In this document: in pieces, positions 4,307-52,234 of the stretch
Layout of the letters: every line of letters begins with the position of its first letter
Numbering within the stretch: the first letter of the stretch is position 1
DNA from: Bacteroidia bacterium
GTDB lineage: Bacteria > Bacteroidota > Bacteroidia > UBA8524
Direction of reading: 5' to 3'
Length of the DNA: 64,000 bases
NCBI GenBank assembly: GCA_037968475.1
Contig: JBBKVO010000018.1
Coordinates: 108,603 to 172,602 of the forward strand
Program-made: the position numbers and the translations under genes
Notes under the pieces: generated by a model
What the model was told of the DNA's origin: nothing
Seen by the model: only the letters and a program-made list of their open reading frames with translations
Databases searched by the model: none

Positions 4307-5317
4307 TTAATACCCCCTTTTCACAACTCCCCAACCTATGCGTGCACCTGTATATTGGTCGGTAGGGGCATTGTTTAGTAATTCTTCAATATGAATATCA
4401 ATTTCAGGGGTTAGTTGCACTTCTATTGCTTTACAATTGGCATCCACTTGTTCAGGACGTGATGCGCCAATAATAAGCGATGTAACAGGAGGTTTGTTTA
4501 GTGCCCAAGCCAATGCCAATGCAGCTTGTGTGCAATTTAAGCCATCAGCAATTTTTTTAAGCTCATTTTGCATATCAAAAAACTCATCTGTCATTCGTTT
4601 GCGGGGGAAATATGCTCCTAAATCCTCGCTGCTCATGCGCGAATCATCGGGCACATTATCGCGTGTGTATTTACCTGTTAGTAAACCTTGCGCCAATGGC
4701 GAGTAGCACACCAAACCCAAACCATCTTTGTGGCATACATCCATCACATCTACTTCAAGGCTACGGTTTAGCATATTGTATACGGGTTGGTTGCTTATAG
4801 GTTTGCGCCATCCGTTTTTTTCGCAAATGCGTAAAGCATCAACTATTTGCACGGCACTCCATTGGCTCACTCCCCAATGTAGTATATAGCCACGATCTAC
4901 CAAGTTGTGCATGGCATAGCAGGTTTCTTCTAGCGGGGTGTCAATATCGTAGCGGTGGCATTGGTATAAATCGATGTAATCGGTACGCAGGCGCAACAAA
5001 CTAGCCTCGCAGGCGGTGCGTATATGGCGCATAGATAACCCTTGTGCCATCCAATGATTACTCATTGGGCCAAAAACTTTGGTAGCCACCACAAACTCGC
5101 TACGGACTTTCCCGTGCAGCCATTCGCCAAGTACTTTTTCGCTTTCGCCCATATAATACATATCGGCAGTGTCATAAAAGTTAATACCGTTTTCTAAGGC
5201 TTTATCTAAGGTGGCTATCATATTTTGCCTATTTCCTTTTAGCTGAAAATTCAGCCACATCCCCATCCCTATTTCTGATATATAAATGCCTGTATTGCCC
5301 AGTTGCCTGTATTTCAT
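4307..5317 (-). CDS. Aldo/keto reductase family oxidoreductase (Tas/Kv-beta-like)
   Basis: 336 aa with the typical AKR N-terminus (MKYRQLGNTGIYISEIGMG) and an AKR fold pattern throughout. Confidence 0.85.
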   Translation of the reverse strand: MKYRQLGNTGIYISEIGMGMWLNFQLKGNRQNMIATLDKALENGINFYDTADMYYMGESEKVLGEWLHGKVRSEFVVATKVFGPMSNHWMAQGLSMRHIRTACEASLLRLRTDYIDLYQCHRYDIDTPLEETCYAMHNLVDRGYILHWGVSQWSAVQIVDALRICEKNGWRKPISNQPVYNMLNRSLEVDVMDVCHKDGLGLVCYSPLAQGLLTGKYTRDNVPDDSRMSSEDLGAYFPRKRMTDEFFDMQNELKKIADGLNCTQAALALAWALNKPPVTSLIIGASRPEQVDANCKAIEVQLTPEIDIHIEELLNNAPTDQYTGARIGWGVVKRGY

Positions 5318-5576: not shown

Positions 5577-6077
5577 CTACTCTTGCCTTGTCCAAACAAT
5601 CTCACCGCTTAGGCATTCTTCTTTTTTTAGTGAGGTCTCTATTTGAGTACGTAAGCTTTCCGTTGATTTTACGGCTTCAGTACCTCCATCAAGCAAACCA
5701 ACATCGTAGGTATACATTTTTCCATTATTGTACTCGTAGCAATACAAATAGTAGCTATTATCGTCTTTTGGAAGAGAGTATATAAACGTTTTGCCACTAA
5801 TTTTAGTTACCCACCCTATAAATTCATTGGTTTCAAGGCTATACATTGTGCCCGTATTTTCTACTTTAATAGAATAGCTATTGGCAGAAGCTTTTGTTAT
5901 AGTTACTTTACCAAATTCAGGGTCTTCCTCGTTGTTCGTCCATGTACCCAAAAGGTTAGGGTCGATTTTTTCAGTGCCCGTGTTTCCGGCAGGGTAGTCT
6001 AAACCAATTGGGCAACCGCTAAGTAATACCATTACCGGCAGCAGCATTATTATTACAAATTTTGTAGTTTTCATCAT
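5577..6077 (-). CDS. Hypothetical lipoprotein
   Basis: Signal peptide with a lipobox-like LLSGC motif. No recognisable domain. Confidence 0.5.
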   Translation of the reverse strand: MMKTTKFVIIMLLPVMVLLSGCPIGLDYPAGNTGTEKIDPNLLGTWTNNEEDPEFGKVTITKASANSYSIKVENTGTMYSLETNEFIGWVTKISGKTFIYSLPKDDNSYYLYCYEYNNGKMYTYDVGLLDGGTEAVKSTESLRTQIETSLKKEECLSGEIVWTRQE

Positions 6078-6160
6078 TTAGGTTAATACACCAAATATCA
6101 TCATAAGTAAATTATTTTTTCTACGATTTTTTTTAACCCGCTCGCACCTATTTTTGCACC

Positions 6161-6865
6161 ATGCAAAAACGCACTAAAATACCTGTATGGATAAAAACAG
6201 TTTGGGGCTATACAAAACCAATTGCTGTTTTATTGATGCAACTGTTTTTGCTGTTTACCATTGTGTTTAGGGTAGTGCCTATCCCTTTATCACCATTGAT
6301 GGTATTGCGCCCTTCGCCCATAAAAAAAGATTGGGTGGCGTATGAAAAAATTAATAAAAATGTGCTGGTAGCAGCTCTGACTGCCGAAGACCCACACTTT
6401 GCCACCCATTGGGGGTTTGAGTTTGAGGCAATGGTAGATGCTGTTGAGGATAATATTGAAGGAAAAAAGAAACACCTACGCGGTGGTAGTACTATTAGCC
6501 AGCAAACAGCAAAAAATGTATTTCTTTTTCCGGGTAATGGTATTACACGTTATATACGCAAGGGGTTTGAGTTTCCGCTAACGGCTTGGCTTGAACTAAT
6601 GTGGAACAAACGCCGCATATTGGAGGTATACTTAAATATTATTGAAATGGGCGATGGTATTTATGGTATTGAGGCCGCTGCACAGCATTATTATAAAACC
6701 ACAGCAGCAAAACTAACGGCGCAGCAAGCTGCTTCAATTGTGGTTTGTTTTCCTAATCCTTTGAAAAGAAATCCATTGAAGCTAACGCCCCGTTTGCAAA
6801 AAAGGCGAAACAAATATGTGCGCTGGATGGCAGGCTATAAGTTGCCCGCCAACCTGCAACCCTAA
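6161..6865 (+). CDS. mtgA: Monofunctional biosynthetic peptidoglycan transglycosylase (GT51)
   Basis: 234 aa with an N-terminal TM helix and GT51 motifs ([26 protein letters not shown]). Confidence 0.85.
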
Positions 6866-7731
6866 AACATTTGCTCCATTATTTTTATAAGGTAGCGGCC
6901 ATAGCCACTTTTCATAAGCGGATGGGCTAGTTTTTCAAGCTGCTCTTTATTAATAAAGCCCATACGGTAAGCTATTTCTTCAGGGCAACCGATTTTTAGG
7001 CCTTGCCTTTCTTCAATCACCTGTACAAATGTGCCTGCTTGTATTAGCGAGTCTATAGTACCTGTATCTAACCATGCCGTTCCCCTGTTCATCAGGGCTA
7101 CTTTTAGGCGATTGCGTTGCAGGTATATTTTATTAATATCGGTTATTTCCAACTCGCCGCGTGGCGATGGTTTTAGGCTGCGGGCATAGGCCACCACATC
7201 GTTATCGTAGTAGTAAAGGCCGGGTACTGCATAGTTTGATTTTGGTTTTTCGGGTTTCTCTTCAATGCTTAGCACGTTCATATCCTCGTCAAAATCAACC
7301 ACACCGTAACGCTCAGGGTCGTTTACGTGGTAGGCGAAAACTATACCGCCTTCAGGGTCGTTACAGGCCTGCAAAGTGCGCGAAAAGCCCGAACCATAAA
7401 ATATATTATCACCCAAAATAAGGGCTACTTTTTCTTTACCGATAAAATCAGCACCTATGGTAAATGCTTGCGCAAGTCCTTTTGGTTCTGGTTGTTCAGC
7501 ATAGCTAAACTCGCAGCCAAACTGCTTACCATCGCCCAAAAGTTGACGAAAAAGGGGTAAATCGTGCGGGGTAGATATAATAAGTATTTCGCGTATGCCC
7601 GATAGCATTAGGGTGCTGAGGGGATAGTATATCATGGGTTTATCGTACACAGGCATTAGCTGTTTGCTAACGGCAATTGTAAGTGGATGCAAGCGTGTAC
7701 CCGAACCTCCTGCTAATATTATACCTTTCAT
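6862..7731 (-). CDS. rfbA: Glucose-1-phosphate thymidylyltransferase
   Basis: [19 protein letters not shown]-terminus, 289 aa. Canonical RmlA. Confidence 0.9.
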
Positions 7732-7996
7732 TCTACAATTATACTAAGTTTGGGCTGAATTGCCTTACAGTATGGCGTTACTAATTTTTTGTTTGCCAGT
7801 ATGAGCGTCCGCTTGTGCTAAACAATAGGGTAGCATCCGCTACCTGCTTAAATGTTTCATCCACAATGCCTGCCGCACTCCTTCAACTTCATCCAGAAAA
7901 AACCACTTGTTATCCCGTCATGCCGACGCAGGTCGGCATCTCGTTGCCCAATAAAGTTTACACAGATTGAGATCCTGAAACAAGTTCAGGATGACA

Positions 7997-8030
7997 GCCA
8001 CACAAGGTGACAATGGTTAGTTTAGGCATT
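7997..8030. repeat. Short dispersed repeat CAGGATGACAG.CACAAGG.ACAATGGTTAG (copy 1)
   Basis: Near-identical to 39999-40032. A partial match (ATGACAGCCGCGCA) lies at 9425-9438. Confidence 0.5.
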
Positions 8031-8052
8031 GCTTAAAACTGTAAACCAAAAA

Positions 8053-8105
8053 CTTAAAACTGTTTACAAATCCTCAGCACGCTCGACCAACTTAAGGTCG
8101 GGTTG
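8053..8105 (-). pseudogene. Displaced, diverged copy of the rmuC 3' end (last ~11 codons plus stop)
   Basis: The minus-strand translation of 8062-8097 reads ...PDLKLVERAEDL*, the same as the true RmuC C-terminus (DPKLVERAEDL*) at 9464-9499. The DNA is about 85% identical to 9453-9510. Confidence 0.65.
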
Positions 8106-8185
8106 TTTTAAATTTTATAATTTAAGTTATCATTATTTTGTAGAGATAATATAAATTATTAAATTGCTTCAAACTATCGTAAATT

Positions 8186-8956
8186 ATGTGGAAAGGATTT
8201 AATTTAAAATTGGAAGGCTTTGAAAATTTAGATCAGTACGAAACTATTGGCAAAAGTCTCTATACCGCAAATAAAAATCAAGCTATGAAAGGGCTTGAGG
8301 AATATACTACTAAAAATGGTCGAATTAATGGTACCGAAATGAAAAAAGATTGGTTTCCTGAAATTATGGCCGATATTTTTATTTCGCATTCACATAGTGA
8401 TGAAAAAATTGCTGTTGCTTTGTCTGGGTATCTTCATGATAATTTTGGTTTAAATACATTTATCGACTCTTGTGTATGGGGGTACGCAAACGACCTACTG
8501 TTTGAAATTGATAAAAAAAACTGTTCTTCTGGTGATAATCTTTTCAGCTATGAGGCCAGAAATTATTCAACTAGTAATGTTCACATGATGTTAGCTACAG
8601 CAATATCTAAAATGATGGATAAAACAGAGTGTGTATTCTTTTTGAATACACAAAACTCAATTACCACTAACGTAGCTCTGATCTCTCAAACTGAATCACC
8701 ATGGATTTATTTCGAATTAGCGATGACGAAAATCCTTAGAGCTAATATTCCAAATAGATTAAAAGAGGAAACTAGAACCATGTCTGAATCTCTTAATAAG
8801 AAATCTACATTTGTTTATGAGTTAGATTTGAGTGACTTGATAGAAATTAGTTTTACTCACTTATTAAGATGGGAAAGGGAAAATAAGCTTACAGCTGCAT
8901 CAGCACTCGATAAACTATATGAAATAACGAATAGTAATGGCATTATCAGAGGATAA
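8186..8956 (+). CDS. TIR-domain protein (candidate NADase-type immune TIR)
   Basis: Residues 63-98 are DIFISHSHSDEKIAVALSGYLHDNFGLNTFIDS, the betaA-alphaA-betaB TIR signature. Residues 139-178 are AISKMMDKTECVFFLNTQNSITT...SPWIYFEL, matching the vvvlS.ny..S.WC..EL block with a candidate catalytic Glu at residue 177. The gene is AT-rich. Confidence 0.6.
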   Translation: MWKGFNLKLEGFENLDQYETIGKSLYTANKNQAMKGLEEYTTKNGRINGTEMKKDWFPEIMADIFISHSHSDEKIAVALSGYLHDNFGLNTFIDSCVWGYANDLLFEIDKKNCSSGDNLFSYEARNYSTSNVHMMLATAISKMMDKTECVFFLNTQNSITTNVALISQTESPWIYFELAMTKILRANIPNRLKEETRTMSESLNKKSTFVYELDLSDLIEISFTHLLRWERENKLTAASALDKLYEITNSNGIIRG

Positions 8957-9359
8957 AATCAAACATTTAGAGTTTATACAGAACATAATTACTCGTATGA
9001 ACTCTAATTCATTTCAGATTAAAGGCTTGGCAGTCACCCTAACAACTGGTTTATTGGCAGTTTATGGTGCAAATCCAAAAGTGATTTTTATATTCATAGG
9101 GATACTACCCAATATACTTTTTTGGCTCTTGGATACTTATTACCTACAAATGGAGTGGAAATTTAGAGGGCTGTATAATGATATTATAAACCCAGATAAT
9201 ACTATACCTTCATTTAGTATGGATATTATCAAATACAAAGGAAAAGAGTACTCGTTTGTTAATGTACTATGCTCTAAATCAATACTTCCTTTGTACCTAT
9301 CAATTATTGTTATTTTACTTTTGCTTGGTATTGGAATTCAATATAATTCCTGTGCTTAA
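8937..9359 (+). CDS. Small membrane protein with three predicted TM helices; candidate effector partner of the TIR protein
   Basis: 140 aa. It overlaps the upstream gene by 20 nt, which suggests translational coupling. Hydrophobic segments lie at about residues 28-47, 50-70 and 116-136. Confidence 0.5.
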   Translation: MALSEDKIKHLEFIQNIITRMNSNSFQIKGLAVTLTTGLLAVYGANPKVIFIFIGILPNILFWLLDTYYLQMEWKFRGLYNDIINPDNTIPSFSMDIIKYKGKEYSFVNVLCSKSILPLYLSIIVILLLLGIGIQYNSCA

Positions 9360-9463
9360 AAGATACTTGAATTATACTTTCTGATAAAAATCCCCTACCC
9401 GCCCATGTTTCGACTTCGCTCAACATGACAGCCGCGCAGCCATTAGTTATTACTTAAAACTGT

Positions 9464-10804
9464 TTACAAATCTTCTGCACGCTCTACCAACTTAGGGTCT
9501 AGCTGTTTAGATACTTTTGCTCCCAACTCGCGCAAAGTTTCGGCACGGCGTATAAGGTTTCCGCGCCCTTCGTAAAGCTTTTTCATACTGTCTTCATAAG
9601 CTCCCTGTGCCGATTTCATTTTCTTGCCCAAATCAATAAGGTCTTCGGTAAAGTTTACAAATTTATCGTACAAATCGCCGCCTTGCCTTGCTATCTCCAG
9701 CACGTTACGGTTTTGGTATTCTTGCTTCCAAATATTGGCTATGGTGCGCAGGGTGGCCAGCAGGGTACTACTGGTTACTATTACTATATTTTGATCGAAG
9801 GCATCATTAAATATTTCCGAATCGCTTTGCACTGCAACCGCAAAGGCCGATTCTATGGGGATAAACAACAATACAAAATCAGGCGTATCAATCTCGTACA
9901 ATTGGTGGTAGCGTTTTTCGCCCAGTTGTTTTATATGCTCGCGAACCGATTTTATATGCGCCTTTAGCCACGTTTGTTGCTCTTCTTGCGTATTGGCCGA
10001 TGAGTACCTTTCATACGCCGTTAGCGATACTTTTGAATCGACAATTATATTTTTATTGTCGGGCAGTTTTATAATAACGTCGGGCTGTTGGCGGCGACCT
10101 TCATCATTCACAAAACTTTCTTGCACACTATACTCTTGCCCCTTGGTAAGTCCGCTTTTCTCCAATACTTTCTCTAAAATCAGCTCACCCCAATTACCCT
10201 GTGTTTTGCTTTCGCCTTTCAGGGCTTTGGTTAGTCGGTTAGCATCCTCACGCATCCCTTGGTTTAGTTCGGTAAGTCCACGTATTTGCTCGGCTAGTCG
10301 GCTTTGCTCCTTGCTATTTTCAAGGTGGGTATCTTCCACCTTTTTCTTAAACTCATCCATCTTCTCCTTCAACGGGTTTAGCACTATATCTAAACTATCA
10401 CGGTTTTGACGAACAAATTTTTCGCTTTTCTCTTCAAATATTCTATTGGCAAGGTTTTCAAACTCTTTAGCTAAACGCTGCTGTAAGGCTTCAACCTCTT
10501 GTTTCTGTTCAGTAAGTTTTTGTTCAAGGTTTTGCAACTGGTTAGCCAGTCGGCTATTATCAGCCGTTAGGCTTAGGCTTTGTTTCTGGGCATCTTCAAA
10601 CTGGGTTTTAGCATCAAATAAAGTAGCCTGTAATGAGTTGGCTTTCTCTTCCAATCCTGCCTTCTCGGCAGTAATACGCGATATTTCTTGCCCACGCATA
10701 TCAAAATCGGTACGGGGCACCATTTGGGCTATTTTGTTTTTACCCAAAAGCCAGCCAATAAAAGCTCCTGCTACTAATCCCACCACTACAAACAGTATTT
10801 CCAT
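9464..10804 (-). CDS. rmuC: DNA recombination protein RmuC
   Basis: Coiled-coil N-terminal half and a conserved RmuC C-terminal nuclease-like domain (YHQLYEIDTPDFVLLFIPIESAF...). The ORF track extends to 10903. The start at MEILFVVVGLV (10804) is more likely, giving an N-terminal TM helix. Confidence 0.9.
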   Translation of the reverse strand: MEILFVVVGLVAGAFIGWLLGKNKIAQMVPRTDFDMRGQEISRITAEKAGLEEKANSLQATLFDAKTQFEDAQKQSLSLTADNSRLANQLQNLEQKLTEQKQEVEALQQRLAKEFENLANRIFEEKSEKFVRQNRDSLDIVLNPLKEKMDEFKKKVEDTHLENSKEQSRLAEQIRGLTELNQGMREDANRLTKALKGESKTQGNWGELILEKVLEKSGLTKGQEYSVQESFVNDEGRRQQPDVIIKLPDNKNIIVDSKVSLTAYERYSSANTQEEQQTWLKAHIKSVREHIKQLGEKRYHQLYEIDTPDFVLLFIPIESAFAVAVQSDSEIFNDAFDQNIVIVTSSTLLATLRTIANIWKQEYQNRNVLEIARQGGDLYDKFVNFTEDLIDLGKKMKSAQGAYEDSMKKLYEGRGNLIRRAETLRELGAKVSKQLDPKLVERAEDL

Positions 10805-10877
10805 ATTTTTGCCGCTTAATTTTTTATTACACCAATGCTTACCAAAGGGCAATATTCGTACTAATTTTGGACTTTTT

Positions 10878-12242
10878 ATGCTGAAAACACCCACAAAACC
10901 CACTCGCGCTATTACCCTAAAAGGTAGACTGTTGGCTCGTTTTGTGTGGTTACTACTGCTTTGCGTGCATTTTTTTAAGTGGAAAAAATGGCAATACCCG
11001 CCTGCGGGTTTTCACGATGACCCTTTGCATTTTAAACTTAAAGACATTCTGTTTTTTGCATATAAATACTATTTCCGCACGCTAGAAAAGGCCGAAAAAA
11101 ACTCTGGTATCGAAGATTATTTTAAAACTCAAAACTTTTCTTTTCCCGAAAAACCTTTGGGTGCAACTACCATTACACTGAGTGCAGGTGGCGATTTGAT
11201 GCCCTACGAATGGATAAACCCCAACAGCACAAAACACTTGTGGGACGAGGTGGGCGACTTTTTTTTTAACAGTGATATTGTTTTTGCCAACCTTGAAACA
11301 CCAATGGTTTTAAGCGAAAAACCTTCACTAACACCAGAAGTTATGCTTAACGATATGTATTTTAACGGTTCGGAAGAGTTGTACTCCATTTTTAGTGGAA
11401 ACAGAAAATACAAGGGCTACGATATTCTAAGCACTGCCAACAACCACATGTTGGATATGGGTGAAAAGGGACTAAAAACCAATTTAGATTTTTTAAAAGG
11501 AAAAGCCCTTGCCGTAGGTTCAGCATACGATAAAGAGGGACAAGATGATTTTCCTATTGTTGAACGAGACGGAATACAAGTAGCATTTTTGGCCTATACA
11601 TATAGCCTTAATAAACTACAACCTATTGAGGGCAAAGAATACCTTACCAACTACTTGCCTCTAAACCAAGACGGTTGCGATATTAGCTTGATTATTCATC
11701 ATGCAAAGTTGGCAAAACAGCGCGGGGCTGATATGGTAGTATGCTCGCTACACTGTGGTTGTGCCTACCAAGCCTATCCTGCCAATCATACGGTTGATTT
11801 GTACCATCGTGTTTTTGATGAGGCGGGCGTTGATGTAATTTTAGGGCACCACCCACACAACCCGCAACCTATGGAGCAATACCCTTTTACTGATCCTTTT
11901 ACAGGTAAAGATAAGCTGGGCTTTGCCATATACTCGCTAGGCGATTTTGTAGCGTACGATTTAAGTATTTTTTGCCGTATGCCTTTGCTTTTAAAGTTTG
12001 AAATAACAAAAACTTACGAGCATACTTTTGTCTCGGGCTTACAAATTTTACCCGCCTACCTTGCCGGTAAAAAAACTGCACAGGGTATGGATGTGCGCTT
12101 ACTAAACCTAGATAAAATTGCCCAAGAAAACTATACACATCCGTTTTTAAACAAGGCATTAAAAAAAGAAGCTGGCACTCTTTACAGCTTTTTACAAAAC
12201 CATATTATACGGCCACAACACGAAATATGGCTGAAACATTAA
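10878..12242 (+). CDS. CapA/PgsA-family protein (poly-gamma-glutamate synthesis-type metallophosphatase)
   Basis: The LSAGGDLMPYEW...DIVFANLETP motif matches the PGA_cap family. The ORF-track N-terminus (10446-10877) overlaps rmuC on the opposite strand and is judged spurious. The start was chosen at MLKTPTKP. Confidence 0.75.
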   Translation: MLKTPTKPTRAITLKGRLLARFVWLLLLCVHFFKWKKWQYPPAGFHDDPLHFKLKDILFFAYKYYFRTLEKAEKNSGIEDYFKTQNFSFPEKPLGATTITLSAGGDLMPYEWINPNSTKHLWDEVGDFFFNSDIVFANLETPMVLSEKPSLTPEVMLNDMYFNGSEELYSIFSGNRKYKGYDILSTANNHMLDMGEKGLKTNLDFLKGKALAVGSAYDKEGQDDFPIVERDGIQVAFLAYTYSLNKLQPIEGKEYLTNYLPLNQDGCDISLIIHHAKLAKQRGADMVVCSLHCGCAYQAYPANHTVDLYHRVFDEAGVDVILGHHPHNPQPMEQYPFTDPFTGKDKLGFAIYSLGDFVAYDLSIFCRMPLLLKFEITKTYEHTFVSGLQILPAYLAGKKTAQGMDVRLLNLDKIAQENYTHPFLNKALKKEAGTLYSFLQNHIIRPQHEIWLKH

Positions 12243-12326
12243 AATTTAACTGTATAATTCTTTATTTTGCGACTCGTTTTTAAAACTAAATAACATACAG
12301 CCAATTTTATAATACACCACACAGTT

Positions 12327-12887
12327 ATGGAAGATGTAAAAACTATACTTGACGAAACTAAAATGAGCATGGATAAATGCATACAACACACTGAGGTTGA
12401 GTTTGCAAATATTAGGGCAGGAAAAGCCAGCCCGAATATGCTTGATGGTATAAGTATAGACTACTACGGTGCAATGACACCCTTAGCACAAGCCGCCAAT
12501 ATTACCACCCCCGATGCACGCACTTTAGTGATACAACCTTGGGATAAAGGGTTGATTAGTGCTGTAGAGAAAGCAATTATAGACTCTAACCTTGGCCTAA
12601 ACCCACAAAACGATGGTATAGTGGTGCGCCTAAATATACCACCACTTACTGAAGACAGACGTAAAGGGTTGGTGAAAACCGTGAAAGCTGAAGGCGAAAA
12701 TGCCAAGGTAACTATACGTAACATACGCAAAGAAGGAAACGAGCAAATTAAAAAAGCACAAAAAGACGGACTTGCCGAAGATTTGGCAAAAGACGGTGAA
12801 GCAAAAGTGCAAATACTTACTGACCAGTACATTAAGAAAATTGATGAACTGCTAGTACTAAAAGAAAAAGAAATAATGACCGTTTAA
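12327..12887 (+). CDS. frr: Ribosome recycling factor
   Basis: 186 aa, collinear with RRF throughout (VRAGKASPNMLDGI..., TIRNIRKE...). Confidence 0.95.
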   Translation: MEDVKTILDETKMSMDKCIQHTEVEFANIRAGKASPNMLDGISIDYYGAMTPLAQAANITTPDARTLVIQPWDKGLISAVEKAIIDSNLGLNPQNDGIVVRLNIPPLTEDRRKGLVKTVKAEGENAKVTIRNIRKEGNEQIKKAQKDGLAEDLAKDGEAKVQILTDQYIKKIDELLVLKEKEIMTV

Positions 12888-39924: not shown

Positions 39925-39998
39925 CTATATAGCTGTGTTTGTTTCATCCCCCTACCCCCTTCTCTCATGCGCTTTATCCTTCTACTCCGCTCAGGATG

Positions 39999-40032
39999 AC
40001 AGTGCACAAGGGGAACAATGGTTAGGATGGAT
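39999..40032. repeat. Short dispersed repeat (copy 2)
   Basis: CAGGATGACAGTGCACAAGGGGAACAATGGTTAG compared with 7997-8030 CAGGATGACAGCCACACAAGGTGACAATGGTTAG. Confidence 0.5.
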
Positions 40033-44508: not shown

Positions 44509-44629
44509 TTACTCAAAATTTTAAGGCAAATACTAATTATTTATAATGAAAACTTGTCTAATCGCCGAATTCTATAAAAATTGCAACTGAGTTTATAAAA
44601 AAATTACTACTCTATCATTTGTATTTATT

Positions 44630-46390
44630 ATGAAAAAACTACTACTAACAGCAGTTGTGCTGGTTGCAGGTATTGCAGCGCATGCACAGTATTTCCAAAA
44701 TCTTTACGGCGTTCCCGTAAATGAAACTCTAACATCAGGTATCAATACTACAGCTTCGGGAAACGGCTATTTTATGGCTAGTTCTAACAGCGGCTTTGCT
44801 TTTGGTACTCCTTCAATTTCAGCTGCATTTGCAGACGTTACAGGTAATATACCCGGTGGCCCTTACTTTACTAACGAGTACATGGTAGTAAGCAATGCAG
44901 GTAATCCATTACAAACCCAAGACCCACAGGTATTTGAGTTTGACAACGGTTCTGGCTTTGGTATTATAGGCAGGTATACCGACCCTACAATGGCTAGCCC
45001 AAACACTGGAATTTATTTTCTTCAATTAGACCCTTCGGGAAATGTACTAAATTCTTTTAACTATACTGTTAACCCTAATGGCAGTAGCTTTTGGGATGTT
45101 ATAAAAGTGAGTGCTATTGCCGAATCGGCCACTGGTAAAGAAATATACGTTACAGGCTGGTTACAACCCAATTTTGCACAAGTAAACAGCTTTGTATTAA
45201 AAATTGACGCTGCCTCTGGAGCAATAATTTGGGGTTATGTATACGATGTTATCAACCCTAGCTTCTCGTCAAAAGATTTGTTTAACGACATTGTAGAAAG
45301 CCCTTATTCTAGTGAAGTTATTGTTGTGGGTCAAACTTATGATGGCACTACAACTTCTGATGGCTTGTTTATGCGTATTAATTCAAATACAGGAGCTGCT
45401 TTTCCTATCGTAAACCTTCACGGAACAGCAACCTCATGGGATGCTTTTAATGCTATAACCGTAGCTAACAGCCCTGCCGCTGGTGGCCCTGGTTTTGCAA
45501 TTGGTGGTACAAGCGATGCTAACGGTACTAATGATTTTTGGTTTACTTTAGTTGATCCTACAGGTACTTTTATCACTTCAACCCTACACGATTATAGTAT
45601 AAACCCAGGCGCCAACGATATTTGCGAAGATATAATTGAGCGCAAAAACACATTTGGCAAATATGAATACTACATGGCTGGCAGCACCTTTAAAGGAGCA
45701 TTTGGCAAGTACGATGTATTAGTAATAAAAACTGATGCTAAGGGTAATGGTGTTGCCAATGGAGAATTTACTTATGGTAGCGCAGGTAACGATTTTGGTA
45801 AAAGCATTGACCAATATAACGGTACAGGTAATGATGGCCTAAGCATATTTGGCACTTATGATGATAATGTTATAGGCGGTTCTGATATGTACTTGGTAAG
45901 AGCTTATTTTAATGGCGCATCAGGTTGTAACGAAAAATTTAGCACACCAACCCCAAAAAGTGGCCCTAAACTATACTTACGCTATGATGTAAAAGATATA
46001 GCCAAGTTTAAAGACAACAAATTCTTATGGAAACAAACTACTGCCAAAGACAAAAATCTTTGCTTTGCTTGGACAATAACAGGTGGCAGTAACGCCCGTG
46101 TAGCTCCAGCCGAACCTAGCGGAGATAAAGAAGCAAAAGTCAGCCCTAACCCAATTGCACAAGGCACACAATATGCCGCCCTTGAAGTTGAAGTAGAAAA
46201 CCCGACCACAGCACAAGTGGCTATTTATGATATGCTTGGCCGTACCTACTATGCTCAAACCTTTACATTAGTAAAAGGTAAAAACAACATAGTGCTTGAT
46301 ATTAACAACGTTAATATGGCACAAGGTATGTATACTGTTAAAGTACAAGGTGAAAACCTAAACCAAAACATTATATGGTTAGTAAAATAG
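44630..46390 (+). CDS. T9SS type-A C-terminal-domain secreted protein, paralog 1 of 4
   Basis: Signal peptide ending ...AHAQYFQNLYG. Conserved C-terminal block GGSNARVAPAEP.GDKEAKVSPNPIAQG... plus a sorting-domain tail. Confidence 0.7.
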   Translation: MKKLLLTAVVLVAGIAAHAQYFQNLYGVPVNETLTSGINTTASGNGYFMASSNSGFAFGTPSISAAFADVTGNIPGGPYFTNEYMVVSNAGNPLQTQDPQVFEFDNGSGFGIIGRYTDPTMASPNTGIYFLQLDPSGNVLNSFNYTVNPNGSSFWDVIKVSAIAESATGKEIYVTGWLQPNFAQVNSFVLKIDAASGAIIWGYVYDVINPSFSSKDLFNDIVESPYSSEVIVVGQTYDGTTTSDGLFMRINSNTGAAFPIVNLHGTATSWDAFNAITVANSPAAGGPGFAIGGTSDANGTNDFWFTLVDPTGTFITSTLHDYSINPGANDICEDIIERKNTFGKYEYYMAGSTFKGAFGKYDVLVIKTDAKGNGVANGEFTYGSAGNDFGKSIDQYNGTGNDGLSIFGTYDDNVIGGSDMYLVRAYFNGASGCNEKFSTPTPKSGPKLYLRYDVKDIAKFKDNKFLWKQTTAKDKNLCFAWTITGGSNARVAPAEPSGDKEAKVSPNPIAQGTQYAALEVEVENPTTAQVAIYDMLGRTYYAQTFTLVKGKNNIVLDINNVNMAQGMYTVKVQGENLNQNIIWLVK

Positions 46391-46416
46391 TTTAGATAAA
46401 ACACTAAATTAATTTA

Positions 46417-46447
46417 AAGCTACCCCTTTTGGGGTAGCTTTTTTTTT
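46417..46447 (+). terminator. Rho-independent terminator (module copy 1)
   Basis: AAAGCTACCCC-TTTT-GGGGTAGCTTT followed by a T-run. Confidence 0.7.
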
Positions 46448-46466
46448 GTAAAACCAAAAAGGGTAG

Positions 46467-46517
46467 TTCACAAAGTCAAAAGGGTAGTTCACAAATTCAA
46501 AATGGTATTTCACAAAG
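46467..46517 (+). promoter_or_regulatory. Three TTCACAAA(G/T) direct repeats phased at 21 bp
   Basis: Repeats start at 46467, 46488 and 46508/9. They are upstream of the conserved CAAATTGTATACACA promoter-proximal block. Confidence 0.5.
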
Positions 46518-46582
46518 TGAACATGTTTTAACAAATAGTATTTGTGCAAATTGTATACACAAATTTTAAAACACTATCTATT

Positions 46583-48340
46583 ATGAAAAACATTATTCTA
46601 ATTGTCTTTTTACTAGCCGGTTTCACTAGCAAGGCTCAGTATTTCCAACATCTTTACGGTCAAGACCCCGCTATTGGCAGCTTAATAGGAAATGGCATGA
46701 ACACCAAAGCAACAGGGCCCGGACATTTAATAGGGGGTTTACATATAAAAGATTTATTAATACCCCCCGGTCCGTATGATTTTTACAACTTTGCTCTGCA
46801 TGTTATTAGAACCGATGCTGACGGCAGGTTTGCTTCTCCAAACGATTTTAATAATACTTATAGGCTAACTAACTCAGCTGGTGCTGCTATCCGTTTCTCA
46901 GCAGGTTCTGTTGTCGAGTTTAGTGATGGCAGTGGCTATGGTGCTATAGGTACTTATTTTTACGAGCCTCTGCCTCGCTCGTTTGGTATTGCCTACATCC
47001 GCTTAGATGTACTCGGTAATGTAATTAGTTCACAAGGCTACGCTTTACCTTATAGGGGCGGTAGCTATATTGATTTGAGGGGAATGAAAGAATCAGTATC
47101 AAACCCCGGCGATCTATTTGCTACAGGCACATCTGCAAATTCAAATGGTGATGAGTATATGTGGGCACTTAAAATTGACCAAACCGGCACTCTTTTATGG
47201 GGGAATTTATATGATTTTGGATTAGGTATTATTGAAGATCCAGCTGATTTAATTGAAAGCCCTTATGCCTCAGAACTTATTGTTGTAGGAGGGGTGAAAT
47301 CATCGTTAAGAGCCTTATGGATGGTTTTAGACCCTAACACAGGCAGTGTGATTTCAGCCGATGAGATGTCGTCTTTTTACGGTACAACTGAGATTTTAAA
47401 CTCCATTGATGTAAGTGATGACCCTTTAATGCCCGGTTTTATACTTTCAGGTGTAGTGGATGAAAAGGTATGGGTAGTAAAAACCGACCAAATGGGCACT
47501 TACCAATGGGGAGGAATATATCAACCCTCATTTAGTCAAGTAGAATATATGTATGGTTTTGATGCCGTTGGTCGCCTAAAAGAAGATGGCTCTGATGGCT
47601 ATAATTATGAATACTTTATTACTGGAGCGATATATGTTACATCTGCACCAAACCCTGATGCTTTTGTTTTTAAACTAGACCGTTGGGGCAACCCCGTCAA
47701 CCCAAATGCATTATTTATTTATAACTATGGTATTGAAGAAACAGGATTGGATGTAGATGTAAATATAAGTGGCAGTGGCGATGGTGTTACTATGTATGGT
47801 ATTGGTGAAGATAACAATATCCCTACCAAAGAAATATATGTTGTTAAGGCCTATTTTAATGGTGTTTCTGGTTGCAATGAGCGGTTTGAAGATTTACAAC
47901 AAAATGTAGGAGAACTTTTTCCTGTTAATTCGTTAGGCGTTGCATTAACTCCACTAAGCACAGAAATTCTTACATTATACAATATCGAGAATGAATTAGA
48001 TAAAGAGATTTGCTATAACACTACAATACCCAGTGGTAGCAATGCACGCGTAGCTCCTGCTGAACCTAAAGGTGATAAAGAAGCAAAAATTAGCCCTAAC
48101 CCTATTGCACAAGGCGTTCAATATGCTAATATAGACGTTGATATTGAACAACCTACAACTGCACAAGTATCGGTTTACGATATGCTAGGCCGTACCTACT
48201 ACTCGCAAACATTTACTTTGGTAAAAGGCAAAAACAACCTAGTGCTTGATATTAGTAATATTAACATGGCACAAGGTATGTATACTGTGAAAATACAAGG
48301 TGATAACCTAAACCAAAATATAGCATTACTTGTAAAATAA
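46583..48340 (+). CDS. T9SS type-A C-terminal-domain secreted protein, paralog 2 (start chosen at MKNIILIVF)
   Basis: The ORF-track start at 46544 lies inside the conserved promoter block. A signal peptide begins at 46583. The C-terminal ~100 aa are ~90% identical to the other paralogs. Confidence 0.7.
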   Translation: MKNIILIVFLLAGFTSKAQYFQHLYGQDPAIGSLIGNGMNTKATGPGHLIGGLHIKDLLIPPGPYDFYNFALHVIRTDADGRFASPNDFNNTYRLTNSAGAAIRFSAGSVVEFSDGSGYGAIGTYFYEPLPRSFGIAYIRLDVLGNVISSQGYALPYRGGSYIDLRGMKESVSNPGDLFATGTSANSNGDEYMWALKIDQTGTLLWGNLYDFGLGIIEDPADLIESPYASELIVVGGVKSSLRALWMVLDPNTGSVISADEMSSFYGTTEILNSIDVSDDPLMPGFILSGVVDEKVWVVKTDQMGTYQWGGIYQPSFSQVEYMYGFDAVGRLKEDGSDGYNYEYFITGAIYVTSAPNPDAFVFKLDRWGNPVNPNALFIYNYGIEETGLDVDVNISGSGDGVTMYGIGEDNNIPTKEIYVVKAYFNGVSGCNERFEDLQQNVGELFPVNSLGVALTPLSTEILTLYNIENELDKEICYNTTIPSGSNARVAPAEPKGDKEAKISPNPIAQGVQYANIDVDIEQPTTAQVSVYDMLGRTYYSQTFTLVKGKNNLVLDISNINMAQGMYTVKIQGDNLNQNIALLVK

Positions 48341-48372
48341 AATAGTATTTATAATCATCATATCTGTTTTAT

Positions 48373-48406
48373 AAAAGCTACCTCAAAAGGGTAGCTTTTT
48401 TTTCAC
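48373..48406 (+). terminator. Rho-independent terminator (module copy 2)
   Basis: AAAGCTACC-TCAAAA-GGGTAGCTTT followed by a T-run. Confidence 0.7.
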
Positions 48407-48473
48407 AAACCCAAAATAGTGTTTCACAAAACAGAAACTGCATTTCACAAAGTCAAATGCCCATTTCACAAAG
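48401..48473 (+). promoter_or_regulatory. Four TTTCACAAA(C/A/G) direct repeats at exactly 21-bp spacing
   Basis: Repeats start at 48401, 48422, 48443 and 48464. Confidence 0.55.
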
Positions 48474-48537
48474 TAATCACACTGTTGCAGTTAATATTCT
48501 ACAAATTGTATGTACTAATATTAAAATACTATCTACA

Positions 48538-50292
48538 ATGAAAAAAATCTTTTTAATCACCTTAGCCTTTGCTTCTATTGGTGCAAGTGCTCAATTCTTT
48601 CAACACAACTATGGCACTAAAGACAGTGAGAATGCAAGCAATGGGTTAAACACCACTGCAACAGGGTTGGGACATTTTATTGTCTCAAGTACTTTTAATT
48701 CTCCAACAAATGAAATTTTAGCGGTTAATACCGATATTAATGGAAATGTTGCCGCCTTTAATAATTTATATACTTTAACTCATTCATCTGGAGTATTGCT
48801 AGATATTGACAATACTTTACCTATCGAATTTAGTAACGGAAGCGGTTATGGTATTTTTGGCAGATTTCACGACCCAGGTCTTAGCATACCTACAGGTATT
48901 TTTTACCTTGAAATTGATCCCGCAGGAAACATTTTAAATGTTACTGAATACAATCCTATTAGCACTGTCGGCACAAATTATTATGTAGTAGAAGTTGCTG
49001 ATGTAACCGAATCATTAGGTGGTGGTTTCTTTTATATTACGGGGACTGTTGACCCCAGTATTATGGGTAACTTTTGGATTTTTGTTATAAAAATTGACCA
49101 AGCAGGAAATATAATATGGTCTATTGTAGACGACCTAGTAAACTCAACATCGGTATCACGTGATTGGGCAAAAGGGATTGTCGAAAGTCCGTATTCTCCT
49201 TCGGGTACTCCTGAATTGGTGGTTGTAGGACAAACCTATGATGGAGGAGGTTCAGCAGATGCATTTCTCGTAAGGCTTGATGCCAATAGCGGAACATCAC
49301 TAGCACCTGTAAATTTATATGGCACTACTACCAGTAATGAGATTTTTAATTCTATTAAGATAGCAAACAACACTATATCAGGTGCGCCCGGCTTTATTAT
49401 TGGCGGTAGTAGTGATATAAATAGTGGTGGTGCAAATCGTGATTTTTGGCTACTTCAAACAGATGACCAAGGTAATCCATTTTGGAGCTACACTTATGAT
49501 TATAATGGTAGTTCAGGCAATAACGATTACAGTACAGATGTAATTGAAAGGCTTAATACTGGGGGATTATATGAATACTATCTTGGCGGGCATACCAATA
49601 ATGGAAACCTTGGTGGTGCCGATTTGGTAGTTATAAAAACTGATAATTTAGGTAATGCCGTTGGTCAATTTACTTATGGTAGCCCTTCTGATGATGTTGG
49701 CACTTATCTTGACTATTACGACCTCGTGGGGCCTGATGGCTTAAGCGTTTTTGGTACATACAATGGAGGTGGTATAGGTTTAATGGATACATACCATGTA
49801 AAAGCTTATTTTAATGGTTTATCTGGTTGTAATGAAAATCTTGGTATGACCCATAATTTAATAGGCCCCGGCCTATTTATGAACTTACAGGATAGATTAA
49901 AAACAACATTTAAAAATGTTTCTATGACATCCGCCCTATCTAGTGCGAAAGATGCTAACCTTTGTTTCAACTTCTCTATACCCGGTGGTAGCAATGCACG
50001 CGTTGCTCCTGCTGAACCCAAAGGAGATAAAGAAGCAAAAATTAGCCCTAACCCAATTGCTCAAGGTGTACAATATGCCAATGTAGAAATTGATATTGAA
50101 AAACCTACAACCGCCCAAGTATCGGTGTACGATATGCTTGGTCGTAGCTACTATGCACAAACCTTTACTTTGGTAAAAGGCAAAAACAACCTAGTGCTTG
50201 ATATTAGTAATATTAACATGGCACAAGGTATGTATACTGTGAAAATACAAGGTGAAAACCTTAACCAAAACATAGCATTACTTGTGAAATAG
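48538..50292 (+). CDS. T9SS type-A C-terminal-domain secreted protein, paralog 3 (start at MKKIFLITLAF)
   Basis: The signal peptide starts at 48538. The ORF-track 5' extension covers the promoter region. Confidence 0.7.
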   Translation: MKKIFLITLAFASIGASAQFFQHNYGTKDSENASNGLNTTATGLGHFIVSSTFNSPTNEILAVNTDINGNVAAFNNLYTLTHSSGVLLDIDNTLPIEFSNGSGYGIFGRFHDPGLSIPTGIFYLEIDPAGNILNVTEYNPISTVGTNYYVVEVADVTESLGGGFFYITGTVDPSIMGNFWIFVIKIDQAGNIIWSIVDDLVNSTSVSRDWAKGIVESPYSPSGTPELVVVGQTYDGGGSADAFLVRLDANSGTSLAPVNLYGTTTSNEIFNSIKIANNTISGAPGFIIGGSSDINSGGANRDFWLLQTDDQGNPFWSYTYDYNGSSGNNDYSTDVIERLNTGGLYEYYLGGHTNNGNLGGADLVVIKTDNLGNAVGQFTYGSPSDDVGTYLDYYDLVGPDGLSVFGTYNGGGIGLMDTYHVKAYFNGLSGCNENLGMTHNLIGPGLFMNLQDRLKTTFKNVSMTSALSSAKDANLCFNFSIPGGSNARVAPAEPKGDKEAKISPNPIAQGVQYANVEIDIEKPTTAQVSVYDMLGRSYYAQTFTLVKGKNNLVLDISNINMAQGMYTVKIQGENLNQNIALLVK

Positions 50293-50324
50293 TATTTGTG
50301 CTGATAAATATTCATCACTTTATA

Positions 50325-50350
50325 AAAGCTACCTCAAAAGGGTAGCTTTT
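50325..50350 (+). terminator. Rho-independent terminator (module copy 3)
   Basis: AAAAGCTACC-TCAAAA-GGGTAGCTTTT. Confidence 0.65.
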
Positions 50351-50351
50351 A

Positions 50352-50408
50352 TTTTACAAACCCAAAACAGTATTTCACAAAACAGAAAGCTTATTTCACA
50401 AAGTGAAG
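50352..50408 (+). promoter_or_regulatory. Three TTT(C/T)ACAAA repeats at 21-bp spacing
   Basis: Repeats start at 50352 (degenerate), 50373 and 50394. Confidence 0.5.
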
Positions 50409-50467
50409 TCTTTTTTCCCCATTCCATTTATTCAAATTGTATACACATATTTTAAAAAACTATCATT

Positions 50468-52234
50468 ATGAAAAAACTATTTCTAATTGTATTTGCATTA
50501 ACCTCAATTGGAGCCAATGCACAGTATTTCCAACATCTGTATGGAAGCGTTGACGAAGAGCGCGATATATCAGGAGTGAACACCTTTATACAGCCACAGG
50601 GACATCTTATGGCATCAAACAATATTAACAACCAACTAGGTACATCAAACCTTATTGTTACCTACACTGATATAGATGGAAGAATACTAGGAGCACCAAA
50701 CTTTAATAATGAGTATGTGATAACCTCACCTATTTCGGGAAACGCAGTATCAATATCATCGGCCAAAGTATTTGAGCTTGAAAATGGCAGTGGCTTTGGC
50801 GTAGTTGGCTTATACAGAGACAATTTATTACCCCAACCCGGTATTTTTTATTTACAGCTTGACCCTATGGGTAATGCGCTAACTATATACGATTATACAC
50901 CCAACTCGGGTATTATAGCTTGGTATAGCCTATTAAATGTGGGAGCAGTATCAAAATCACCCGGTACTGATGATTTGTACATTACAGGTGGAACAGAATC
51001 TAGCGCCGCAGCAAATTTTTTATACGCTTTAAAAATAAATACTATGACAGGTACTATACTTTGGTCGAGTTTTTATGATATAGTGCAACCAAATTCCCCC
51101 AAAAAAGAATCGGCTGCAGATATTATAGAAAGCCCCTATATGCCATTAGGTCAAACTGAAGTAATAATTGTAGGTAGCGGATATGATGTAACTTCAACTA
51201 GTATTGATGGATTCCTTATCCGCTTAAATGCAAATACGGGGATCCCTATGGTGGGTTGGGCTAACTACTATGGTACCACAGCAACTTCTGAAAAATTTTC
51301 AAGTATCGATATTGCCAGCAGCACCGCAGGTGGCTCAGATGGTTTTATTATTGGCGGAACAGCAGCAGGGGGCGATTTTTGGCTAATAAAAGTTGATCCT
51401 ACGGGCTCAACCATTTGGTCTCACGTATACGATAACAGCTTATTACCGGGTAATAGTGATGAATGCCACGATGTAAAAGAAAGACTTAATACATCAGGTA
51501 ATTATGAGTATTACGCTTGTGGAACAACGGGAAACATTAGCGGAAGCTCTGATATAATGGTAATAAAAACCGATGATTTGGGAAATGGAGTAGCAAACGG
51601 AGAGTTCACCTACAACAGCGGCATAGGTGTGGTTGATATGGGATATGCGCTTGACCAATATAATGGTACTGGAGCTGATGGACTAAGCATTTATGGTATA
51701 TCCTTCAACGGCAGTATTGGTCTAGCCGATCAATATCTTATCAAAGCATACTTTAATGGTAAATCAGGCTGTAACGAATCATTTAGCACTCCTAACGCAC
51801 AACTGGGAGCTGATTGGTATAGCGAAACTACATTGGATTATTTTGACAACTTCTCAGTAAGTACAATGTTATCAACCCAAGGTTCTGTTAGCGATTTTAA
51901 CCTTTGCTATAGGCGCAGAATAATCGGTGGTAGCAATGCACTAGTAGCTCCCGATGAACCTAAAGGTGATAAAGAAGCAAAAGTTAGCCCTAACCCTATT
52001 GCACAAGGCACACAATATGCGGCTCTTGAAGTTGAGATTGAGCAGCCTACAACCGCCCAAGTATCAGTGTACGATATGCTTGGCCGTAGCTACTATGCAC
52101 AAACCTTTACATTAGTAAAAGGCAAAAACAACTTAATGCTTGATATTAGCAATATCAATATGGCACAAGGAATGTATACAGTGAAAATACAAGGAGAAAA
52201 CCTTAATAAAAATATAGTACTGCTGGTAAAATAA
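50468..52234 (+). CDS. T9SS type-A C-terminal-domain secreted protein, paralog 4
   Basis: Same architecture and conserved C-terminal block as paralogs 1-3. Confidence 0.7.
   Translation: MKKLFLIVFALTSIGANAQYFQHLYGSVDEERDISGVNTFIQPQGHLMASNNINNQLGTSNLIVTYTDIDGRILGAPNFNNEYVITSPISGNAVSISSAKVFELENGSGFGVVGLYRDNLLPQPGIFYLQLDPMGNALTIYDYTPNSGIIAWYSLLNVGAVSKSPGTDDLYITGGTESSAAANFLYALKINTMTGTILWSSFYDIVQPNSPKKESAADIIESPYMPLGQTEVIIVGSGYDVTSTSIDGFLIRLNANTGIPMVGWANYYGTTATSEKFSSIDIASSTAGGSDGFIIGGTAAGGDFWLIKVDPTGSTIWSHVYDNSLLPGNSDECHDVKERLNTSGNYEYYACGTTGNISGSSDIMVIKTDDLGNGVANGEFTYNSGIGVVDMGYALDQYNGTGADGLSIYGISFNGSIGLADQYLIKAYFNGKSGCNESFSTPNAQLGADWYSETTLDYFDNFSVSTMLSTQGSVSDFNLCYRRRIIGGSNALVAPDEPKGDKEAKVSPNPIAQGTQYAALEVEIEQPTTAQVSVYDMLGRSYYAQTFTLVKGKNNLMLDISNINMAQGMYTVKIQGENLNKNIVLLVK

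Follow-up and report, generated by a model that had tools for sequence, protein, structure and literature searches.

A small TIR-gene insert bordered by two copies of the rmuC 3′ end in a Bacteroidia genome

Transposons, insertion sequences and integron cassettes all appear as small, discrete inserts with flanking direct repeats, and the target duplications of transposons and insertion sequences are 2 to 15 nt long. In Campbell-type integration, the duplicated stretch is the stretch of homology itself, and one of the two copies restores the target gene. CIMEs keep attL and attR and by definition lack integration and transfer genes (PMC6323972). As for cargo, the closest described systems are Thoeris types V and VII, which also occur on mobile elements and in which a ThsB-like TIR gene is followed by the gene of a small membrane protein; this protein is ThsF, with DUF2270 and three membrane helices, in type V and ThsH, with SLATT, in type VII (bioRxiv 10.64898/2025.12.03.692087).

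Here, we describe a locus from a Bacteroidia genome, located in a 64-kb stretch of DNA (the window), in which the 3′ end of the rmuC gene is present twice. The underlying event is of a known and, as such, ordinary kind, namely a direct-repeat-flanked islet at the 3′ end of a housekeeping gene that carries a presumed defence system. In common with CIMEs and other integrase-less islets, its repeats extend over the end of an intact conserved gene, its cargo is small, integration and transfer genes are lacking, and related genomes have empty sites. Three features lift it above routine: there is no recombinase, a sister cassette elsewhere carries a passenger fragment of rmuC, and the cargo is uncharacterised. 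The features of the locus are compiled in Table 1.

Table 1. Features of the rmuC locus, in window coordinates
Feature	Position	Strand	Remarks
Glucose-1-phosphate nucleotidyltransferase (rfbA-type) gene	6862..7731	-	Pfam PF00483; directly after rmuC in empty-site genomes
Native REP-like pair	7935..8032	-	Downstream of the original rmuC end; present in empty-site relatives too
Left direct repeat	8052..8108	-	rmuC-like codons and stop at 8064-8108; 12 nt past the stop at 8052-8063
Hairpin and T-run, terminator-like	8081..8103	+	Inside the left repeat, just upstream of the cassette promoter region
AT-rich leader, probable cassette promoter region	8109..8185	+	Partly alignable with DNA upstream of the L181 TIR gene
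ThsB-like TIR protein gene, 256 aa	8186..8956	+	PADLOC ThsB1 PDLC00430, E=3e-73, residues 1-250
Membrane protein gene, 140 aa, presumed effector	8937..9359	+	PADLOC candidate PDC-M50A, E=3e-42
REP-like unit: GTCAT, hairpin and GGGTAGGGGA	9380..9451	-	rmuC-proximal end of the insert
Right direct repeat	9452..9508	-	Functional rmuC 3′ end and 12 nt past the stop
rmuC, intact, 446 aa	9464..10804	-	Pfam PF02646, E=1.5e-107; called gene; relatives 97-98% identical

A first-pass annotation of this DNA had reported a duplicate of the RmuC C-terminus 1.4 kb from the real one. Indeed, a repeat search and pairwise alignment identified the two copies as a direct repeat of 57 nt, identical at 50 of 57 positions (88%), whose starts are 1400 nt apart. 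With the exception of a tandem gene family at 44 to 52 kb, this pair is the sole repeat of such length in the window, and the 21-nt core in which both copies are identical (GATTTGTAAACAGTTTTAAGT) occurs twice, compared to 0.01 occurrences expected from shuffled sequences. On the minus strand, positions 8064-8108 translate to KQPDLKLVERAEDL and positions 9464-9508 to KQLDPKLVERAEDL; that is, the repeat spans the final 14 codons of rmuC, the stop codon, and 12 nt beyond it. Over the last 10 codons, the left copy differs from the right one by three changes, all of them synonymous, just as the first-pass annotation had described, while one leucine-to-proline and one proline-to-leucine change are found further up. 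Directly upstream, the left copy is preceded by in-frame stop codons and so does not represent an open gene.

The same annotation had taken the duplicate to mark the edge of inserted DNA, and related genomes bear this out. Downstream of rmuC, all six close relatives with an rmuC gene of 90 to 92% nucleotide identity have a single copy of the rmuC end and lack the insert. The closest reference genome, L001 (OZ252261.1), is a Bacteroidia MAG with a complete chromosome; it aligns to window positions 5588-8108 and 9456-12500, the two aligned parts sharing 53 nt of L001, meaning that there is one copy and nothing in between. The five other contigs (L172 to L176, rmuC 90 to 91% identical) are each single-copy as well, with the rfbA-type gene located 327 nt after rmuC in L172, L173, and L175. 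Judged by these six relatives, the segment from 8109 to 9451 is an insertion of ∼1.34 kb which begins 12 nt after the rmuC stop codon. Its left junction, previously placed at about 8105-8110, is found at 8108/8109. The right junction had been put at 9420-9425, which is ∼30 nt short of its actual position at 9451/9452, and the REP-like unit in between is part of the insert. With exact junctions, empty sister sites, and an untouched host gene, the locus offers a cleanly delimited case of a recent gain of a defence system.

The insert is foreign DNA, with a GC content of 29 to 33% versus 43 to 45% in the flanks. ORF, Pfam, and PADLOC scans assigned to it the two cassette genes only, separated from the repeats by 77 nt and 92 nt. 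Different from transposons and insertion sequences, it contains no transposase gene by ORF and Pfam searches and no terminal inverted repeats at its ends by repeat search, and its 57-nt repeat far exceeds the length of a target duplication. An attC-like site or an integron integrase did not come up in these scans either. Rfam and tRNA scans revealed no RNA genes around the locus. Searches of plasmid and phage DNA turned up no phage match and, among plasmids, only remote matches to the TIR gene on three from Bacillota. On either side of the insert, the window diverges from L001 and L172 by ∼9%; the 100-nt bin across the junction is somewhat more divergent (21/93), and no imported, more divergent tract was found beside the junctions when divergence from these two relatives was scored in bins.

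Given that the window is a metagenome-assembled contig, we considered that an assembler might have joined two strains or species via a shared rmuC-like sequence. The only other assembly with this arrangement, a Logan contig from run SRR28403175, is 100% identical and may share reads with the window, which is compatible with such an artefact. Nevertheless, we regard it as highly improbable. The copies differ at seven positions and share only 21 identical bases, and both junctions are internal to an uninterrupted contig that carries native sequence to the left and right. Moreover, even a chimera presupposes some genome with rmuC-like sequence on either side of the cassette, and an rmuC fragment is seen beside a related cassette in four contigs from four JGI samples (see below).

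The rmuC gene itself aligns to positions 2 to 290 of the 291 positions of the PF02646 profile, as expected of a member of the RmuC family, and scores 368 bits with the NCBIfam RmuC model, which is under the equivalog cut-off of 810. Its longest ORF (9464-10903) begins at a GTG and would encode 479 aa; the called gene and those of all close relatives begin at the ATG at 10804, giving 446 aa. The housekeeping rmuC is also hit by the PADLOC model 'RTasRmuC' (DRT) at E=1e-162, which probably gives rise to spurious defence-system calls.

Turning to the cargo, the TIR protein has >2400 homologues, the best non-self matches being 48 to 50% identical; its PADLOC assignment is strong (Table 1), and its match to Pfam TIR_2 is weak and below threshold (E=0.021). 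The gene of the membrane protein, a member of a family of >6600 homologues, overlaps the TIR gene by 20 nt. Three membrane spans are predicted from the hydrophobic stretches of this protein, and the helices of its AlphaFold model (pLDDT 86.8) fit this prediction, with two long ones at residues 5-45 and 50-84 and a third, C-terminal one at 117-139. Neither the protein nor four of its homologues gave a credible Pfam match (best E=0.01 in one member, to the unrelated DUF3278). It matched nothing in NCBIfam and only PDC-M50A models in PADLOC, and fold searches with the model returned generic helical-hairpin matches only.

In its layout, a ThsB-like TIR gene followed by a small membrane protein with three predicted helices, the insert resembles Thoeris types V and VII. 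The ThsB-type TIR protein expected of a Thoeris system is present, as called by PADLOC ThsB1. In contrast, the adjacent effector carries none of the recognised domains (SIR2-SLOG, Macro, DUF2270, SLATT, etc.) and belongs to no other Pfam family. The same gene order, TIR gene then small membrane-protein gene, recurs in most homologue contexts examined, often with a second TIR gene nearby; these homologous pairs reside in Bacteroidota conjugative transposons, beside serine recombinases, or on viral contigs. Two loci (L179 and L180) have ThsB-like homologues without the membrane partner, in clusters where several TIR genes are accompanied by LD_cluster3-type and LRR/Roc-COR/TIR proteins, indicating that the TIR sensor pairs with varied partners.

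Based on these comparisons, we consider the insert a candidate Thoeris-like two-gene anti-phage cassette. By analogy with Thoeris types that have small membrane effectors, the TIR protein would likely sense phage and produce an NAD-derived signal, in response to which the membrane protein would damage the membrane. In the literature library searched, queries for PDC-M50, or for rmuC as an integration site, returned nothing relevant. Since the pair is known only as a computational candidate (PDC-M50) and both families are large, it makes a reasonable candidate for a further Thoeris-like type.

A search with the membrane protein retrieved a homologue of 83% identity (P0175) on L181, a 270-kb contig of JGI sample 3300073936, and the same arrangement recurs in three further samples, making four contigs from four different JGI samples. 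The L181 cassette does not reside at rmuC; it is located between an AlbA_2/Schlafen-type gene and a PNKP/RNA-ligase pair. Window positions 8964-9440, comprising the effector gene and the REP-like unit, are 86% identical to L181 6031-6515 on the nucleotide level, compared to only 45% identity between the two TIR proteins. Going by this disparity, either the sensor was swapped or it has evolved much more rapidly than the effector; we view this as module shuffling inside the cassette. Alignment of window 8186-9440 with L181 5220-6515 shows TIR-gene similarity in two short patches only, at 8325-8493 and 8565-8648.

A clue to the origin of the left copy comes from an rmuC-like fragment that immediately precedes the TIR gene of L181 and is oriented like the left copy in the window. 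Of this fragment, which corresponds to window positions 9476-9530, 36 nt align with the window at 89% identity and 27 nt with L001 and L172 to L175 at 96%, and its best matches are the rmuC genes of the window/L001 clade. It overlaps the window repeat by ∼30 nt and extends 22 nt past the repeat boundary; running 22 nt beyond a 57-nt repeat, it indicates that the rmuC piece of the cassette lineage was once at least 79 nt long. Because a related cassette elsewhere has an rmuC-like fragment at the same position, the left copy may have come in with the cassette instead of being a decayed local duplicate. The label 'fossil', given to the left copy in the first-pass annotation, suits it as a nonfunctional duplicate at the edge of an insert; its further meaning of a decayed local gene end is not established in view of the L181 fragment. 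As to how the L181 and window cassettes are related, vertical inheritance followed by rearrangement may account for both.

The L181 cassette is bracketed by direct repeats of its own (96 nt, 93% identity, spacing 1544), with no recombinase inside. Such bracketing repeats were seen in 3 of 27 scanned sequences with the membrane partner, namely the window, L170, and L181. In the flanking DNA examined, these three are also the cases lacking any called conjugative-transposon or recombinase gene. In L170, the repeats are copies of the 3′ part of a tRNA-Leu gene at 4673-4762, 7459-7548, and 7874-7963 (87 nt at 100% identity, with one copy at 77 to 92%). They bracket a TIR/membrane protein/TIR cassette and a further segment of 325 nt, neither with an integrase, and the last copy is the only one to be part of a complete tRNA.

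The L181 cassette also helps to interpret the sequence past the rmuC stop codon, where similarity between the two sides of the insert had been reported to continue for about 45 nt. This holds for the first 12 nt, which are colinear. Beyond them, either side has a REP-like unit, that is, a GTCAT motif and hairpin with a G-rich tail, and the likeness is a family resemblance. Indeed, the insert-side unit is no closer to the native pair at 7935-8032 than to a third unit at 39935-40032. A longer duplication past the stop was rejected, the insert-side unit being equally like the one 30 kb away. The insert-side unit belongs to the cassette, since it is absent from the empty sites and has been kept at the same end of the L181 cassette. 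REP-like units of this kind form a dispersed family, located downstream of genes in the window lineage; they consist of GTCAT and a 6- to 8-bp hairpin, often with a GGGTAGGGG tail, and sometimes occur as inverted pairs. Further members are found at L001 7375-7470 and at L181 4930-5060 and 6460-6560. A second motif, GAGCGTCCGCTTGTGC (window 7803-7818), is common to the window and L181.

We next compare the two copies with the rmuC ends of the relatives. The copies disagree at seven sites; six of these have the base of the six relatives in the true copy, and the remaining one has a different base in each of the three. Conversely, seven sites set the true copy apart from the relatives, and at six of them the left copy sides with it; the more distant relatives L002, L003, and L084 identify the states common to both copies as derived. 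These site patterns give the tree ((true copy, left copy), relatives), in which the left copy sits on a long branch. A purely element-borne left copy, as in a simple att model, was rejected as a complete account, given the derived bases that both copies share versus the six relatives.

Such a tree is what the first-pass reading, taken strictly, predicts. According to this, foreign linear DNA would have been inserted illegitimately next to the rmuC stop, duplicating at least 57 nt of target (e.g., by staggered joining on sister chromosomes), and the left copy would have decayed thereafter. The six shared sites, the agreement of the true copy with the relatives at six of seven differences, and the abrupt end of similarity at either side of the 57 nt all speak for it. 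What it does not predict is how the changes are distributed. Four or five of the shared derived changes cluster within 13 nt, compared to ∼0.6 predicted from the per-branch rate. In this 13-nt patch (G18, G27, C28, T30), the true copy matches the left copy (GAGCGT versus GATAGG), and all six close relatives as well as L002, L003, and L084 have the other state; to us, the cluster looks like a conversion patch.

The changes specific to the left copy are just as uneven. All seven are confined to the 36 coding bases, leaving the 21-nt core unchanged (∼0.04, binomial estimate), and five of the seven occupy third codon positions (∼0.045, binomial estimate), each test being marginal (∼0.04 to 0.05) with only 57 nt to draw on. 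The excess at third positions suggests that the left arm diverged while still coding. Four of the seven substitutions are located in the stem of the terminator-like hairpin and strengthen it. In the left copy, this hairpin folds at −14 kcal/mol (z −3.96), a value reached by 0 of 200 shuffles, compared to −8.9 kcal/mol (z −1.29) for the equivalent true-copy stretch; in the true copy and in L001, the hairpin is weak or does not form. Together, these patterns argue against neutral decay, with the reservation that the tests are marginal. In addition, the L181 fragment passes the 57-nt boundary, from which it appears that the rmuC piece travels with the cassette, and a piece of at least 79 nt far exceeds a transposase-type target duplication. 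In light of all this, we consider duplication in situ followed by decay unlikely.

Could a site-specific recombinase have inserted the cassette? In this scenario, the insert would be a CIME-like, integrase-less islet, moved by a tyrosine or serine recombinase that acted in trans or belonged to an element since lost, with an att site over the rmuC stop and the two repeats as attL and attR. Several observations are in its favour. The 3′ end of a conserved gene lies within the repeats, and this gene is restored; the 21-nt core is perfect, with mismatches on one side only; and the locus shares with CIMEs the defining combination of retained att-like repeats and missing integration and transfer genes, including a direct repeat at either end and relatives with an empty site. 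The 3′ part of a tRNA gene is a classic integrase target, and it is just there that the integrase-less L170 cassette, of the same family, is found. Relatives of the cassette also ride in Bacteroidota conjugative transposons and adjoin serine recombinases.

The search for a matching enzyme came back empty. We used a XerD sequence, serving as a search probe only, to seed a phmmer search and then built an HMM from its hits. This single-family probe of limited sensitivity recovered tyrosine recombinases on four viral contigs and none in the 64-kb window or in 160 rmuC-bearing loci, and 8109-9451 contains no recombinase ORF. Different from CIMEs, no cognate recombinase was found in the insert, the window, or the rmuC loci, nor any integrase or conjugative element that targets rmuC; a partner element elsewhere in the genome could still supply one. 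The gaps of 77 nt and 92 nt between genes and repeats leave no space for remnants of an integrase. Nor is rmuC a general hotspot: among 134 other rmuC loci (71 from reference genomes and 63 from metagenomes, all with enough downstream sequence), a single one, L066, has a second copy of the rmuC end, with other cargo and a much longer repeat, so that 0 of 134 have a like insertion. Furthermore, the L181 cassette uses an unrelated repeat, and a left-copy-like patch in the true copy would be unexpected from a clean exchange within the core. We therefore find the action of a recombinase in trans rather doubtful. The imperfect repeats with their mosaic exchange are a further departure from CIMEs, and the presence of the related cassette between quite other repeats suggests that insertion was driven by homology and was not site-specific.

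We tentatively favour, with a probability of about 0.45, a model in which a small circular cassette with an rmuC-end segment was inserted through homology, by a single crossover. The starting molecule would be a circle of ∼1.4 kb, presumably comprising the TIR gene, the membrane-effector gene, a REP-like unit, and a segment similar to the 3′ end of rmuC. This segment would recombine with the chromosomal rmuC end, probably within or close to the 21-nt identical core at the stop codon, and the homologous stretch would thereby be doubled, one copy completing an intact rmuC and the other ending up as a dead copy beyond the cassette. As the cassette has no dedicated recombinase, host homologous recombination, presumably RecA-dependent, is the most likely agent. 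Patchy repair would account for the mosaic in the true copy. The dead copy would have acquired, or been selected for, the hairpin and T-run, a putative terminator that possibly insulates the cassette promoter. In L181, the passenger rmuC fragment would be the record of a former residence at rmuC.

Several lines of evidence point to insertion through homology. The six relatives are single-copy, with alignments unbroken on either side; a related cassette at a non-rmuC locus carries an rmuC-like fragment between other repeats; and the probe detected no tyrosine recombinase in the window or the 160 rmuC-bearing loci. Bracketing repeats are restricted to the window, L170, and L181, where no mobility genes were called in the flanks. 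The 13-nt left-copy-like patch in the true copy is as predicted for patchy heteroduplex repair, and the excess of third-position differences (5/7) between the copies fits as well. The locus would resemble Campbell-type integration in that the duplicated stretch is taken to be the homology stretch, one copy restores the gene, and a former-target fragment is apparently kept in L181. What differs is that the homology is very short and only 88% identical and that the circle is our reconstruction. Indeed, 57 nt at 88% identity would be a poor RecA substrate. Also on the negative side, the shared derived bases are also compatible with a local duplication followed by decay, and the first rmuC segment on the cassette would need an earlier duplication or imprecise excision.

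If homology-driven insertion is true, the locus shows how minimal defence cassettes spread without mobility genes of their own. A wider extrapolation, which we put forward as speculation, is that a family of ∼1.4- to 1.5-kb cassettes with a TIR sensor and a membrane effector moves between sites and genomes without its own recombinase. Its members would loop out between repeats, re-enter by homology, and carry along pieces of former targets, with such a fragment re-used as an insulating terminator in the window.

Two other duplications came to light in the course of these searches. In L066, a Desulfopila MAG, the rmuC 3′ end is duplicated at 2665-2715 and 4806-4856 (51 nt, 96% identity), with similarity running >100 nt past the stop; the 2.1-kb insert contains an acetyltransferase-like gene and a DegT-type aminotransferase gene. 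Within the window, positions 44600-52200 hold four tandem units of ∼1.95 kb that are 68 to 75% mutually identical, apparently paralogous genes whose intergenic regions contain recurring terminator-like sequences (families D1 to D10).
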